DNA of 63,904 bases, filler included, from Caldilineae bacterium (GCA_037446815.1; 6 parts of 6 records of this genome joined end to end with filler, not necessarily neighbours in it), one strand, 5' to 3'. Positions 24,801-30,800 are shown, numbered from the whole stretch's first letter. Numbers: made by a program.

Positions 24801-27800
24801 AGCCTTGTGCCCGGCGGGTCTCCGGACGTCGCCGGGCTGATTTCTGGGCGCTATCCGCCTGCAACGAGGCTGCGAGCAGTATGGGAATCGCGAACACCGT
24901 GTATCTGGCTATCATCGTGCTTGCGCTCGGGGGCGTAGCCGTGGGGCGCTACCCGTGGCTGCGCATGAACCGCGCAACCATCGCGCTGGTGGGCGCGGTT
25001 GTCCTCATCGCGTTTGGGGCGATGTCCCTGGACGAGGCCTACGCGATGCTGGACATGAACACGTTGGCTCTCTTGTTCGGAGTCATGATTCTCAATGTCA
25101 ACCTGATGCTGGCGGGGTTCTTCCGTCTGGTGGGGAGTCTCGTGGTGCGGGTGGCACGGTCGCCACGGCAGTTGCTGGCCATCATCATCGGCGTGTCGGG
25201 AGTGCTGTCGGCGCTATTCCTCAACGATACGATCGTCCTGATGTTCACGCCGCTTGTGCTGGGCATCACCCAGGGCCTGCGGCGCAATCCGATTCCGTAC
25301 CTCATCGGCCTGGCGACGGCGGCGAATATCGGGTCGGTGGCGACGATCACCGGCAATCCCCAGAACATGATCATCGGCGTGGCGTCGGGCATACCGTACC
25401 TGCGGTTTGCCGGCTACCTGACACCGGTTGCGCTGTTGGGCATGGCGGCGGCCTGGGCGATTCTGGTGATGGTGTACCGTGAGGAGTTCCGCGACCGGAC
25501 GCTGCCGCCGGATGGCAACGGGCCTGTGGAGTTCTACCGGCCTCTGTTGGTGAAGGGGCTGGTGGCGACGGGCGTGATGGTGGTTGGCCTGGCCGCGGGC
25601 GCGCCGATTCCCCTGGCGGCGTTGCTGGCGGCGGCGCTGCTGCTCATCACGCGGCGGGTGGAACCGCAGCGGGTTTTCGGCGAGGTGGACTGGGCGCTGC
25701 TGGTGTTTTTCTCGGGCTTGTTCATGATCACGGGCGCGTTAGAGAAGATAGGCGTGGCAGAGCGGCTGTTCGCTGTGGCACGACCTCTGGCGGAGGCGGG
25801 GGGCGCGTCGCTGGCGGCGGTGGGCGTGGTGCTGAGCAACCTGGTGTCCAACGTCCCGGCGGTGCTCCTGTTCCGGCCCATCGTCCCGCAGTTCGCCGAC
25901 CCGCAGGCGGCGTGGCTTACCCTGGCCATGTCCACGACGCTGGCCGGCAACCTGACGCTCCTGGGGTCGGTGGCGAACCTCATCATGGCGGAGATGGCGC
26001 GCGAGCGGGGCGTGCACGTTTCGTTCGGGGAGTATCTGAAGGCAGGCGTGCCCATCACCCTGGCGACGCTGACGATTGGCGTCGTGTGGCTGGGGGTGGT
26101 GGGGTAGGGGTGCCTGCGCCTCATGGCGTCTTCGGGTGGGACACGGAATTGGCCGCGGGTACCGTCGCGTTAAGATTCTCCAGCCATCCGAAGCCGGGCT
26201 TGTCGCTGATGACCGAGAGGAAGTAGAACTCGCGGATGGGGATCACAGTGATGGCAGCAGGCGGCACCGCGAAGTCCTGGCTGGTGATGGAGAGCGAGCC
26301 GTCCGCGTCGGCGAAGCGGGTGAGGGCAACCCGCCTTAACTGGGCCGCGCCGATGTCCAGATTGAGGGCCAGCGCGTCTTCGGCATTGCTCCAAAACGCT
26401 ATAATGTCCTCATTTCCCCGCGTGAAGAGTTTGTACACCAGGCCTGAGTAGTCGGCGCCCATCAGGGGCGCATCCCACCGATAGACCGGCGTAGCGCCCG
26501 ACAGGTGCTTGACCAGCAGGTTGTAGGCGGCGGGGTCTGCGGGCGCGAAGATGAACTCGGTGCCGATGACGCGCTGGTGGGCGTTGATGGCGCCGATGCG
26601 AAGCCCTGCGAGCGCCTCGCGGGCAGGCGTGGTCGTCGGGTCGGCATCGTGGAAACCGGCGTGCAATTCGGTGTCAAACAGGTAGAAACGGTCAAGCACG
26701 CCCAGCGCGAGCGCGTCGCTGAGGAACCCGCTGGAGTCAATGCGCTCATCTAGCGTCTGCCAGGCCTGTCGTGCAGGAATCAGTCTGCCTAGCGGCGTGG
26801 TGTAGTCGTCCAGTGGCGGGGCCGTCTCGCAACCGTCGGGCAGCGAGTAGGGGTTGGCTGGGTCTTGGAAGTACGCGCAACTGTCGGGTGGATCGGGCAG
26901 CCAGTTGGGGTAGAAATACGGGAACTGGTGAAAGCCGATCGCTACGTTGTCGTTGTCCAGCAGGCCGCGTGAGATCATGTACTCGGTGGTAGCGGTCAGA
27001 TCGTGGTCGCGCGATGCCGTTATCTCCAGCGCGCCGGTGATGAGCAGGGCATAGGGGTTTGCGGCGGCCATTTCGCGCGCCGCGGCGTCGGATGCCGTGA
27101 ACAACAAATCTCCGTATGCCGCAACGAACTCGGGCGAGTTTGGCCCCGCCACGCATGGGGGCTGGTTGGGGCCGCACGTGGCATTGCAATCGCTCATGTC
27201 GGGCGGGGTAGTGCACGGGCACAGATAGAACTCGGCGGCAGGCTCGTTGCCCATCTCCACGAAGCGCAGGTCGGGGGCGTAGCGCGCGACCTGCTGGTAC
27301 ATGTTGTCGCGGAATTGCCGCAGAACGAACCCATTTCGCACATCGTAGAACCCTCTGGAACCGTCGGGGTTGGTGTATTGGGGGCACGTCATCCATCCAA
27401 AGTTGCCGTCCAGCACGCCAGTGAACAGGGGCGAGTAGTCGCGCACGTCCGGCGGCAGGCCGAAGAGCCAGTCCAAGTCGTCCCAGATGTACTGCCCAGG
27501 CGCGTGTTGGATGCCGCCCCATCCGCCTGCGCCGCGCACGAACTGGACCGCGTACCGCTGAGCCAACATGCCTTGCCGCAGGGCGCGCTCCGCTTGTTCG
27601 GGAACGAGCACGCGCTGCACGGGATGGCAGTTGCAGGAGTCCAGTTGCTTGGCGCACGCGACGTCGCGGGTGGTGCCCGGCGGGTCGCCCGGCGTGGTCG
27701 GGCACGATGCGCACGCAGGGCCCCAGATGGCGAGAAATGGCACGGGAATGCCGACATAGGCTGGAGTGTCGGGGTGGATGCTGAACAGCGGAGTCCGGGG

Positions 27801-30800
27801 CTGGATGGATGGGGATAACGTGAGTGTGGCGGCTACTCGGTCGTTGCCCGCGACGAACACGAGGGTCAAGGGGTGCGGGCGCATCCGCAGGGTCTGCAGC
27901 ATCAGTTCGCCTGTGGCAGACACGACCATGCCGGCGGAGATGGTCGCGGCGTCCGTCGGGGAGAGCCTGGCGGCATCGTTGACGTAGGTGTGCATGAGGC
28001 TTTGGAAGCGCACCTCAATAGGGCGATGATAGCTGCGCACCTCAATCGGCAGGTAGGCAACGTGTCCCACCGTGAGCGGAACGGTCGCCGGGACCGAGAT
28101 GAATGACAGCCCACCTGGCCCATCGGATAGGACAATGGCGCCGGGCGACGTCGGCGTGGGTGTGGGTGTGGGAGTGGGATGAAGGCCGGTCCAGCGTATC
28201 ATGGCCACGGGTAGACGGATATGTTTAGGCGTGCTCTGCCGGGCCGGACGACCGGCGAGCCGCGAGGTGAATTGCGGAACGGCCAGCAACACCCCCGCGG
28301 TCAGTACAATCACGATTGCTGTCAGGATCGCGGCTCGCTTCATGGGACGCCTCCCGTGCAGGGACACCGAGACCGTCTCGGCATCCGTGCTTTCGGTGTC
28401 AGCATAGCGGCGATATGTTAGCGGGCAAGTGGGAAGATGTAAAACGTTTGTAAGAAGCGACATACGCCCGGCATAGGGGCAAACACAGAGCAGGCACGCC
28501 GTTGCATGTGCGGAGGGCGAGGGTGAGATGTATCTGAGACCCCAAGGGTGTTCAAAACCCTTGGGGTCTCTTCCGCATCTACCGAGGATGGCGGGGTGAA
28601 GGCGGGGAGCGGATGTCTCCCTGCGGATGCCAGGCCCTATAGCGCCGCCTCTTTGCGCAGCAGGTCGGCCTTGTCGGTGCGCTCCCAGGGCAGGTCTAGG
28701 TCGTCGCGCCCGAAGGCCCCGTAAGCCGCCGTCGGCTTGTAGATGGGGCGGCGCAGGTCAAAGTCGCGGATGATGGCGGCTGGCCGCAGGTCAAAGTGCT
28801 TCTTGACCAGTTCCACAATCTTGTCGTCGGGGATGTGGGCCGTGCCGAAGGTCTCCACCATCAGCGACAGGGGTCGGGCGACGCCGATGGCGTAGGACAC
28901 CTGAATCTCCACGCGGTCGGCCAGGCCCGCGGCGACGATGTTTTTGGCGATGTAACGCGCCGCATAGGCCCCGGAGCGGTCCACCTTGGTGGGGTCCTTG
29001 CCCGAGAAGCAGCCGCCACCGTGCCGCACGACGCCGCCGTAGGTGTCCACGATGATCTTTCGGCCCGTGAGGCCGGAGTCGCCCATGGGGCCGCCGATGA
29101 CGAATCGCCCGGTGGGGTTGATGTAGTACTTGGTGGCGCCGTCCAGCAACTCGGCGGGGATGACGGCCCGAATCACGTGCTGCATGATGCCCGCTTCCAC
29201 TTCGTCATGGGTAACCGAAGGATCGTGCTGGGCTGAGACGACAACGGTGTCCACCCGCTTGGGCTTGCCGAAGGCGTACTCCACGGTAACCTGCGACTTG
29301 CCATCGGGCCGCAGCCAGGGCAGGATTTTGGCCTTGCGAACTTCGGCCAGGCGGCGGCAGAGGCGGTGCGCCAGCGAGATGGTCAGGGGCATGTACTCGG
29401 GCGTCTCGTTGCAGGCGAAGCCGATCATCATGCCCTGGTCGCCGGCGCCGATGGCCTCTATCTCCTCGTCGGTCATCTCGCCCTTTTTGGCTTCCAGCGC
29501 CTTGTCCACGCCCAGGGCGATGTCCTTGGACTGCTCCTTGACGGAGACGATGACGCCGCAGGTGTCGGCATCAAACCCGTACTTGGCGCGGGTGTAGCCA
29601 ATGTCGCGGATGGTGTTGCGGGCGATCTCGGCCATGTCCACGCGGGCCGATGTGGTGATTTCGCCCATGATGACGACGAGGCCGGTGGTGGCGCTGCACT
29701 CGCAGGCCACGCGGGCGTCGGGGTCTTGGGCCAGGATGGCGTCCAGGATCGCGTCGGAAATCTGGTCGCAGACCTTGTCGGGATGGCCTTCGGTTACCGA
29801 TTCGGATGTCAGGTACAGTTTGGCCGAAGTGGCGAACGTGGTACTCATGGATTGTGCTCCTTTCTGAATGTGATTTCAGGTCTGTTCGTTTGGATGGCTC
29901 ACCGCAGAGTCGGAGAGGGAACATCGGGTACCCTCTGTGCTCTCTGTGCTCTCGGCGGTGAAAGCCCGCCGGTTTTGGCAAAAAGAAAACTCCCTCAAGA
30001 TGAGAGAGTTTCAAGGCACCTCTCATCTTTCAGACTCGCTCGGTGCGGTCTGCCGGAATTGGCACCATGAACGGGGTCATCGCCCCCGACGGGCCGCGAC
30101 CCGCCGTTCTGGTTGCCGGGGTTTCACAGGGCCGGTCCCTCCACCCCTCTGGATGAGCGTCCAGTCATATTCGGTTGTGCGGGGATAATAGCACAGGGCG
30201 GCGGGTTTGTCAAAAAACCGAACGTGCCGAGTCGGTCTCATCTTGTGTTGGTGAACCGTAGGCGCACTGTCCTCGTGTGTCGTTGCGAGCGAAGCGAAGC
30301 AACCCCACGCTCCAGGGATTGCTTCGGGCGCTCCGCGCCCTCGCAATGACAAACACCAACAGACTTTGGAACCGAATCAACGTGCCTTTTTTCACCGCCG
30401 GGGCGCCCACGCCCGCCCGACGCTAAAGCATCGGGTCGGGTGGGCGTGGCATCTTCTCCCTTAGCGCGGGGGTTTAGCCCCGCGCGGGGCCTGCATCATC
30501 CACAAATAACACGCATTGGCACGAATAGGGGGTGGGGCGGGGTGTCTACACCCGCCCGAGGCTGAAGTCTCGGGCTAAGGCGGCGAGGACGTGCGGGCCG
30601 GAGGTGGTAGGAACGGCGGCGCGGCCGATTTCCCTTCCCGTGCAGGGCGTGGTACAATAGGCATGCTGTCACGATGCGCAGAGATGTGAGGGGTGCCAGC
30701 GGGCTCCCCTCGTTTTGTTCTCCCTGCGGCACATGGCCCTTACTTCTGGGGAGCGGAGCGACGAGGCCGCCGCTGCAGGAAGGCCCAATAATTCAGTGAG

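Follow-up and report, generated by a model that had tools for sequence, protein, structure and literature searches.

The protein P0001 (740 aa) is encoded on the minus strand (26121..28343, stop codon at 26121-26123) of a 63,904-nucleotide stretch of joined parts of a Caldilineae bacterium genome, the window analyzed here; the features described below lie on the same strand. There are good grounds to regard P0001 as a retaining glycoside hydrolase of clan GH-A, in a family, called X here, for which neither Pfam nor NCBIfam has a model. Most likely, it is an exported enzyme that cuts sugar chains, a distant cousin of xylan- and arabinan-degrading enzymes. The genome-wide survey's note had pointed to this ORF as coding for a candidate (beta/alpha)8 glycosidase of clan GH-A type, outside Pfam. 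The ORF list and the translation confirm that it is a real gene of this length, and the proposed assignment is supported by the predicted structure, the profile of the wider family, a conserved pair of glutamates and fusions to GH39- and GH51-like modules.

P0001 alone has no match in Pfam, NCBIfam or the PDB sequences at E<=10, in agreement with what had been claimed for the first two databases, and its link to known families is therefore transitive. Family X is composed of 44 clusters at E<=1e-3, plus nine longer fused forms, and the homologs share 33-86% identity with P0001. None of the 44 clusters bears a functional name, and one (P0044) carries GH39 and Alpha-L-AF_C tags; the same number of clusters, lack of names and single GH39-tagged member had been reported before. 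Record titles assign the family to Anaerolineae/Chloroflexota, Acidobacteriota and Desulfobacteraceae, matching the Anaerolineae, Acidobacteriota and Desulfobacterota listed by the survey. The literature listings consulted contained no description of the family.

More distant similarities were found through relatives and profiles. A phmmer search with P0001 against 1.84 billion representatives reached P0075 (E 1.8e-10, residues 262-370) and P0079 (E 1.9e-9, residues 347-723), and distant relatives show partial Pfam matches to GH42 (31.3 bits, for a cut-off of 21), GH1, GH10 and GH5 across the region of strands 1-4. Two alignments were used, A1 with 27 sequences of the core family and A2 for the wider family including a distant branch. 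The A2 profile matched the solved enzymes PslG (1.1e-8), GH1 (2.4e-8), GH42 (5.5e-7), GH10 (1.3e-6), GH39 5jvk (3.5e-6) and GH5 mannanase (6.5e-5). All the alignments displayed finish at NEP, with N366-E367-P368 of X placed on the known NEP of PslG and GH1. The core-family profile alone set its NE on that of the GH10 xylanase 1hiz, at a non-significant E of 0.92. In an ESM Atlas feature search, the nearest clusters were GH5, GH42 and GH39 (score 0.91).

Membership of P0001 in GH39 (PF01229) is not supported at the sequence level, given the absence of Pfam and PDB matches at E<=10 and a non-significant hhalign comparison of A1 with seven fused GH39 modules (E 0.43). The wider profile does reach PslG and 5jvk, but its matches to GH1, GH10 and GH42 are just as good. 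Membership in GH51 (Alpha-L-AF_C PF06964, catalytic domain PF22848) likewise lacks sequence support, since there is no Pfam match and the hhalign comparison of A1 with nine fused GH51-like modules is non-significant (E 0.066). The Alpha-L-AF_C matches in the fused proteins fall upstream of the X module.

The AlphaFold model of the whole protein (pLDDT 81.5, pTM 0.85) reproduces the quality of the earlier prediction (79.9 and 0.82) and consists of three domains. Residues 67-181 (27801..28145) form an N-terminal Ig-like beta-sandwich, which reaches a pLDDT of 87.2 when folded alone and is retained with its LQTLR motif even in the distant branch of A2; its top structural matches, none with Z above 8.5, make up a flat list of generic domains (Ig, macroglobulin, PapD and S-layer). 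The predicted catalytic barrel (residues 186-616, 26496..27788) displays eight strand/helix alternations between residues 203 and 614 approximately, as expected of the (beta/alpha)8 barrel of clan GH-A. It is followed by a C-terminal beta-sandwich (residues 617-728, 26160..26495) with the motifs YSGLVYKLFTRG-EDI-WSN and FGWL, which is the best-conserved region among distant relatives and superposes on that of GH39, GH30, GH51 and GH79 chains (VIA). The pLDDT drops below 50 at residues 368-371 and 380-383, in loops beside the proposed acid/base.

All 50 best structural matches listed by VIA are glycosidases (Z 13.8-18.4), mostly from families of clan GH-A, and the matches to solved chains cover model residues ~180-715. 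The best one is GH39 5jvk (Z 18.4, 356 aligned residues, rmsd 5.0), followed by PslG 4zn2 (17.2, 342 aligned), GH30 4qaw (17.1) and 2y24 (17.0), GH51 1pz2 (16.1), GH10 8b73 (16.0) and GH79 7eyo and 5e8m (~16). These top Z values lie within ~2.5 of one another, at 8-14% identity, and no family stands out. Foldseek returned the list already given by the survey (9GPA, 5JVK, 2BS9, GH66, GH51, GH44 and PslG, with 9gpa and 9gpe corresponding to ManDH5), with E values from 1e-10 to 1e-7; over the model with all three domains, TM scores were low (TMq 0.2-0.34).

Compared with GH39 (5jvk; PslG 4zn2/5bx9; XynB1 2bs9), which gives the best structural scores, X has the same (beta/alpha)8 barrel and the same C-terminal beta-sandwich, to which an N-terminal strand adds, and the WQVWNEP of PslG aligns with the acid/base motif of X. 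However, identity is 12-14%, the Pfam GH39 model does not match P0001 at E<=10, and X differs by an additional Ig-like N-terminal domain, by loops rich in Cys and by the motifs FDTELHAGF and YSGLVYKLFTRG. The GH51 alpha-L-arabinofuranosidases and the GH30/GH79 enzymes (1pz2, 2vrk, 4qaw, 2y24, 7eyo, 5e8m) also combine barrel and beta-sandwich (Z 15.9-17.1), whereas identity is 10-12% and P0001 has no Pfam match to the Alpha-L-AF_C, GH30 or GH79 models. The wider-family profile of X significantly resembles GH1, GH10, GH42 and GH5 (classical 4/7 superfamily) across strands 1-4, as far as NEP, but sequence alignment is limited to the first half of the barrel, the architecture differs and the models miss P0001.

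In clan GH-A, the acid/base glutamate after strand 4 usually lies within an Asn-Glu-Pro motif, and the nucleophile glutamate ends strand 7. P0001 has a candidate for each of these roles. The putative general acid/base, E367 of N366-E367-P368 (27240..27248), is located four residues past strand 4 (361-363) in the model; the motif is invariant in A1 and E367 is retained in 74/78 rows of the wider family. The putative nucleophile, E559 (26667..26669), lies in FDTELHAGF at the end of strand 7 (555-560), is invariant in A1 and is present in 77/79 wider-family rows. The two glutamates are kept together in 70 of the 73 domains that cover both positions. The survey's note had described N366-E367-P368 and D557-x-E559 as invariant; this holds for the 27 sequences of A1, but D557 is found in only 63/79 rows of the wider family. 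P0057, the sole full-length row without E559, has also lost N-E-P, and N-E is absent from the relatives P0069 and P0070. No known nucleophile aligns significantly by sequence with E559, the only pairing (TE/ITEN with GH1, A2 profile) being non-significant.

Other positions are conserved as well. H472-Q473 (26925..26930), at the end of strand 6 (467-473), is invariant in A1, and the histidine is present in 73/76 rows. A Cys-rich loop (residues 375-397, 27153..27221, with C375, C377, C386, C390 and C397) lies right after the acid/base and is missing from the distant branch in A2. Nine cysteines are invariant in A1 (C211, 230, 239, 375, 377, 386, 397, 489 and 505), one more than previously counted, and three further ones occur in 23-26 of the 27 rows, making twelve present in at least 23/27. 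The conserved cysteines of P0001 are likely to form disulfides.

Such an active site would operate by double displacement with retention of configuration. E559 would attack the anomeric carbon from the end of strand 7 to give a glycosyl-enzyme, while E367, in the N-E-P after strand 4, would protonate the leaving group and subsequently activate water. R270 (strand 2), N366 and H472 (strand 6) may help in holding the -1 sugar, and the Cys-held loop after strand 4 probably forms the aglycone side of the active site.

P0001 is expected to be extracytoplasmic, either membrane-anchored or secreted, as suggested by an N-terminal hydrophobic helix, a PT linker, the conserved cysteines and the YLP motif of its homologs. 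Residues 1-23 (28275..28343) comprise MKR and a hydrophobic helix (3-18 in the model) that could be a signal peptide or signal anchor, and the homologs have similar hydrophobic N-termini. The next segment (residues 24-66, 28146..28274) is a disordered, Pro/Thr-rich linker that includes TPTPTPTPT, pLDDT being below 50 at residues 19-63. Homologs end in a YLP motif, and many of them carry YLPL[VI]L[RK]. NCBIfam describes the YLP box as a putative sorting motif with an 11-position model (NF050076, cut-off 15 bits), under which the homolog P0004 scores 12.1 bits. P0001 itself was rejected as a YLP-box protein: it has no NCBIfam match at E<=10 and harbors just a degenerate stretch, IRLPVAMI, in its linker (residues 42-49, 28197-28220).

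Newly seen here are fusions of X to GH39 and GH51-like modules, X-X tandems and an X gene adjoining a GH39+GH51 gene. The order GH39, GH51-like/Alpha-L-AF_C and X, with X as the final module, occurs in P0094 (two X copies), P0097, P0099 (L008 frame), P0101, P0102 and the truncated P0044, whereas GH51-like/AF_C is joined to X without GH39 in P0100 (L005 frame), P0098, P0012 and L007, GH51-like modules being the commonest direct partner. P0095 is an X-X tandem, and in L006 the X gene begins 8 nt past a 1348-aa GH39 + GH51 gene. The gene coding for P0001 is present in single copy in its own genome, next to genes for a CitMHS transporter, metK, a PpiC/SurA-like protein, a hybrid histidine kinase, a pseudouridine synthase and a formamidase; no carbohydrate genes are found among these neighbors. 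A close GH39/GH51 partner is lacking in the same genome, in which just one weak GH39-like frame exists, on a different contig; the gene was not found in any of four other genomes of the genus (4/4).

Because polyproteins in other genomes carry X as their final module, after GH39 and GH51-like ones, it may contribute a third type of bond cleavage, distinct from the other two, to the breakdown of a complex and possibly arabino-/xylo-type (pentose-decorated) polysaccharide, and this activity may be the backbone-cutting step. P0001 probably acts on a complex, possibly pentose-decorated, glycan. A hemicellulose-like, pentose-containing substrate, for which the one basis is the fusion partners in other organisms, is conceivable but doubtful, and a specifically endo action appears unlikely. 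More broadly, and tentatively, X might represent the first members of a new CAZy family within clan GH-A, with an Ig-like/barrel/beta-sandwich layout, a core branch whose active-site loop is held by disulfides, and a specificity absent from GH39/GH51 modules, which would have led to its repeated fusion, sometimes in two copies, onto GH39 + GH51 polyproteins of Anaerolineae and Acidobacteriota. If true, X would be the backbone cleaver for a heteropolysaccharide degraded by uncultured sediment and groundwater bacteria through a pathway so far unassigned. The family is new relative to Pfam/NCBIfam, yet it would fall inside a very well-known clan.

It is rather improbable that P0001 is instead a helix-anchored housekeeping hydrolase which, similarly to PslG, trims or releases the exopolysaccharide or cell-envelope glycan of its own cell and not food polymers. 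PslG is indeed the best profile match of the wider family and the second-best structural match, it uses an N-terminal membrane helix as anchor, and P0001 likewise has a single N-terminal hydrophobic helix. Moreover, some relatives adjoin glycan-building genes, with a PMT_2/TMEM260-like GT-C transferase in L007, a GH99/GH71/WbsX-like ORF in L012 and a LysM/SdrD-like surface protein in L013. However, P0001's own contig carries no polysaccharide-synthesis genes, the recurrent partners of X are modules typical of nutrient glycan breakdown, and its patchy spread (0/4 same-genus genomes) suits an accessory trait better than envelope housekeeping.

The same fold and catalytic pair would also serve an enzyme acting mainly as a transglycosylase in glycan remodelling, as in GH17, GH72 and GH16-type enzymes, and water could perhaps be kept out by a closed loop following strand 4, if disulfides hold it; nothing specific indicates transfer, however, and the fusion partners resemble hydrolytic exo-glycosidases, making this role very improbable. 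The loss of both glutamates in P0057 and of N-E in P0069 and P0070 implies that the family can tolerate loss of the active site, as would be expected of non-catalytic glycan-binding or structural surface proteins that use an inactive glycosidase as scaffold. For P0001, the chance of this is slimmer still: it retains R270, N366-E367-P368, H472 and E559, and the strict conservation of both glutamates in 70/73 domains at 21-86% identity argues for catalysis.

The start of P0001 was placed at the ATG at 28343, although the frame is open as far as 28463, which would give an alternative protein of 780 aa. A Shine-Dalgarno-like GGGAGG (28350..28355) lies 6 nt upstream of this ATG, and a sigma-70-like promoter match, TTTACA-17-TAACAT (28415..28443), falls within the longer frame; the latter is weak, since the consensus scan gave one site for 0.5 expected from shuffles. 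In addition, the homolog P0002 (79% identity) begins with the same MKR. Taken with the spacing of GGGAGG and the position of the promoter-like site, this start favors the 740-aa form.

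As the genome-wide survey's note had stated, P0001, the 740-residue protein under study, matches neither Pfam nor NCBIfam as a single sequence; this holds even at E ≤ 10, and there is likewise no match among PDB chain sequences. The 44 clusters of homologs that the note had counted in a set of 5.8 billion proteins were recovered at E ≤ 1e-3, and the names given to them by their sources are "hypothetical protein"; a search limited to longer proteins added nine further fused forms. These proteins form a small family, hereafter X. An exhaustive phmmer search of 1.84 billion representatives retrieved 56 proteins at E ≤ 1e-3, 20 of them at E ≤ 1e-30, and 16 loci came from a pattern-seeded scan that covered 185,579 species genomes. 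Judging by their titles, eight of these loci are of Anaerolineae type (two from one MAG), four are from Chloroflexi/Chloroflexota, two from Acidobacteriota and two from Desulfobacteraceae/Desulfatirhabdium, in agreement with the spread reported before (mostly Anaerolineae, also Acidobacteriota and Desulfobacterota). The distribution of the family is patchy: it was found in none of four same-genus genomes (95-98% complete), and of 56 further genomes from the same class only two gave a match, partial in each case. No description of X was found in the portion of the literature covered by our search. In one Anaerolineae MAG (L001), the family match at 1361-3334 is split across two ORFs (L001:1133-1657 and L001:1748-3382), which points to a frameshift, a misassembly or a disrupted gene.

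An AlphaFold2 model of P0001 was built on A1, an alignment of 27 core-family sequences (pLDDT 81.5, pTM 0.85), and shows the same layout of Ig-like sandwich, barrel and C-terminal sandwich as previously proposed. A helix (residues 3-18) and a disordered Pro/Thr-rich linker (19-63) precede an N-terminal beta-sandwich (~67-181), a barrel of alternating strands and helices (~203-614) and a C-terminal beta-sandwich (~618-727). Foldseek again returned the enzymes listed in the note, namely the GH39 5jvk (1.3e-10), the GH5 ManDH5, GH66, GH44, GH51, XynB1 and PslG. In a second structure search, independent of Foldseek, the model was compared with 48,161 chains; the best 50 listed matches are all glycosidases (Z down to 13.8), most of them from families that we take to belong to clan GH-A. 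They include 5jvk (GH39; Z 18.4, 356 aligned residues, rmsd 5.0, 12% identity), PslG 4zn2 (Z 17.2), GH30 4qaw (17.1), 2y24 (17.0), GH51 1pz2 (16.1), GH10 8b73 (16.0) and GH79 7eyo (16.0), and no single glycosidase family stands clear of the others among these 50. Since the matches cover model residues ~180-715, they include the C-terminal sandwich, which is matched within the structural alignments as in GH30, GH39, GH51 and GH79. For the N-terminal domain folded alone (pLDDT 87.2), the list of matches is flat, with Z no higher than 8.5, and contains only generic domains of Ig-like, macroglobulin, PapD or S-layer type; no carbohydrate-binding module was recognised among these, and the domain may hold one.

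In the model, N366-E367-P368 comes directly after the strand at 361-363, counted as strand 4, H472-Q473 lies at the end of strand 6 (467-473), and E559 is within strand 7 (555-560). The 4/7 glutamate arrangement defines clan GH-A, and the predicted placement of E367 (candidate acid/base) and E559 (candidate nucleophile) is this arrangement. When all 102 collected proteins were aligned to the model of A2, a wider-family alignment with distant relatives, E367 was kept in 74 of 78 domain rows, E559 in 77 of 79, and the two jointly in 70 of the 73 rows covering both; R270 and H472 are also conserved (68/71 and 73/76 rows, respectively). Of the D557-x-E559 motif claimed to be invariant, the glutamate largely holds, whereas D557 occurs in just 63 of 79 rows and is thus not required family-wide. 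The exceptions among rows covering both glutamates are P0057, P0069 and P0070. The latter two have R-S-P at the NEP site and retain E559, while P0057, a distant relative of 666 aa, has D-A-S for N-E-P and S for E559. This natural variant lacks both proposed catalytic glutamates and retains all three domains, and is likely a pseudo-enzyme or a binding protein. Of the 13 cysteines of P0001, nine are invariant in A1, rather than the eight counted in the note, with a further three present in 23-26 of its 27 rows. Five of the 13 lie in a loop just past the proposed acid/base (residues 375-397) that is poorly modelled and missing from the distant branch. We infer disulfides among these cysteines.

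A link by sequence between X and known glycosidases can be added to the earlier description. The distant relatives found by phmmer align with P0001 over all three domains in A2, for example P0075 (E 1.8e-10 over P0001 residues 262-370) and P0079 (E 1.9e-9 over 347-723). Several of them have partial Pfam matches confined to the strand 1-4 region; these exceed the cut-off for GH42 in P0075 (31.3 bits, cut-off 21) and for GH1 in P0081 (23.4, cut-off 22.6), and fall below it for GH10 and GH5. Against solved structures, the A2 profile matches PslG (1.1e-8), GH1 beta-glucosidases (from 2.4e-8), GH42 (5.5e-7), GH10 (1.3e-6), GH39 5jvk (3.5e-6) and a GH5 mannanase (6.5e-5). All the A2 alignments listed terminate with the NEP of X opposite the NEP of the enzyme (e.g. 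WQVWNEP in PslG). In PslG, GH1 and GH10 enzymes, this glutamate is the acid/base. The A1 profile matches only GH10 xylanases in the PDB, at a non-significant E of 0.92 and with an alignment terminating at the xylanase NE. The A2 profile run against the 5.8-billion-protein set gave only a few extra matches, all weak and tagged GH5, GH42 or GH18, and no named family.

At locus L008, three modules follow one another in a single 1875-aa frame: the first is GH39-like (residues 130-492; 4e-49 to chain 5z3k), the second GH51-like (559-757, 9e-26 to a Thermotoga arabinofuranosidase; Alpha-L-AF_C at 1037-1160), and X comes last. P0097, P0101, P0102 and P0044, which is cut by a contig end, share this order, as does P0099, which seems to be the very gene of the L008 frame; P0094 (2566 aa) combines GH39 and GH51-like modules with two copies of X (1113-1816 and 1843-2547). 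GH51-like/AF_C followed by X occurs in P0100 (the L005 frame), P0098, P0012 and L007, the last two possibly cut at their 5' end. P0095 (1524 aa) is a tandem duplication of the whole three-domain unit, P0096 (1760 aa) consists of an X fragment, the uncharacterised DUF6259, which could be another glycan-active module, and X, and in P0037 (the L013 frame) a right-handed beta-helix precedes X. In an Acidobacteriota locus (L006), a 1348-aa GH39 + GH51 gene (5e-54 to 5z3k, 1e-34 to GH51) ends 8 nt upstream of the X gene. Three of the long fused forms are named alpha-N-arabinofuranosidase by JGI, evidently because of their GH51 part. Residues 661-760 of P0097, in the GH51-like part, match NCBIfam TIGR02243 "putative baseplate assembly protein" (1.6e-13) with a score far below the cut-off, probably through a shared beta-rich insert.

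Apart from this GH39/GH51 association, no conserved neighbour was found across the 16 related loci; two 900-aa ORFs located 3' of X, one in L012 and one in L014, are not related to each other, the L014 ORF has no PDB relative, and neither Pfam nor the PDB offers a match for the 860 aa that extend the N-terminus in L002. In L012, from a Chloroflexota MAG, an ORF at L012:3970-5925 (plus strand) overlaps the end of the X gene (L012:1764-4034) and matches GH99 (2e-29), GH71 and WbsX models; by these matches it would be a second, different carbohydrate-active neighbour of X. The possibility that X simply derives from its fusion partners by divergence was considered and rejected: hhalign of A1 gave E 0.43 against an alignment of seven fused GH39 modules and 0.066 against one of nine GH51-like modules, with probability <1%, this being a weak test because both alignments are low in diversity. 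The lack of significance argues for X as a separate clan lineage.

The minus-strand open frame of P0001 spans positions 28463 to 26121 of the window, and the called gene begins at the ATG at 28343. This start is favoured because a GGGAGG lies 6 nt upstream (28350-28355, minus strand), a weak promoter-like match (28443-28415, minus strand) falls within the longer frame, and the closest homolog, P0002 (79% identity), has an identical MKR start. The gene is single-copy in its genome, a draft of 3.19 Mb in 265 contigs that is 93.6% complete, and lies on contig C81, which starts at 24585. As the window is a series of concatenated draft contigs (positions 1-12210 being contig C79), neighbourhood arguments are bounded at ~24585 and ~36696. 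Within its contig, no carbohydrate genes were found around the P0001 gene and the neighbours are unrelated; elsewhere in the genome, the sole GH39-like frame is a weak one. A perfect hairpin (gaccccaaggg ... cccttggggtc, 28535-28565, minus strand), not followed by a T-run, lies just past the metK stop and before the P0001 gene. This is probably where metK transcription terminates, and the hairpin supports separate transcription of the P0001 gene.

P0001 is most simply read as a retaining clan GH-A glycosidase active outside the cytoplasm, in which E367 would serve as acid/base and E559 as nucleophile. The main rival is a PslG-like trimming of the cell's own polysaccharide, which would fit the PslG similarity of the family and the N-terminal helix of P0001; however, polysaccharide-synthesis genes are absent near the P0001 gene, and the partners of X are GH39 and GH51-like modules. 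Their recurrent fusion to X suggests that this extracytoplasmic glycosidase would provide a third activity on a common complex glycan also attacked by the two modules. A pentose decoration is plausible, and X perhaps makes the backbone cut, this substrate inference being weak because it is drawn from other organisms.

The fold, clan and chemistry of X are textbook and leave the understanding of glycosidases unchanged. The family itself appears to be new: it has no name in Pfam and NCBIfam, and its stand-alone members are called hypothetical wherever they are named. New as well are its Cys-rich core branch and the position of X at the end of multi-enzyme proteins. If its activity is confirmed, X would represent an extra glycoside hydrolase family, now annotated "hypothetical protein" and therefore missed in CAZyme inventories of metagenomic Anaerolineae, Acidobacteriota and Desulfobacterota genomes. 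The GH39 + GH51-like + X polyproteins offer a synergy hypothesis and natural multi-enzyme constructs for hemicellulose-type breakdown. A clean candidate catalytic pair and the natural double-loss variant P0057 make the family directly testable.

A YLPL[VI]L[RK] motif is present at the C-terminus of the stand-alone proteins P0004, P0007, P0020, P0021, P0023, P0024, P0029, P0031, P0032, P0036 and P0045, and shortly ahead of the X module in P0094, P0097, P0099, P0101, P0102, P0012, P0044, P0005, P0096 and P0027. In fused proteins it lies 6-47 residues N-terminal to X, where the preceding GH51-like module ends, and these positions make it a marker of module ends. P0001 has a degenerate copy (28197-28220, minus strand). 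The NCBIfam entry NF050076 "YLP-box putative sorting motif" is an 11-position model against which P0004 scores 12.1 bits, below the cut-off of 15, and nothing on "YLP-box" was found in the part of the literature searched. If the motif is an internal sorting-type tag between catalytic modules, the polyproteins could be cleaved there or could have been born from the fusion of separately tagged genes. Of the 6638 ORFs in the genome of P0001 that reach 150 aa, a single one carries the strict motif, a 505-aa ORF on the plus strand of contig C2, where it occupies the extreme C-terminus (...YLPIILRF) after a Pro/Thr/Ser linker; 33,190 internal windows drawn at random contain no copy.
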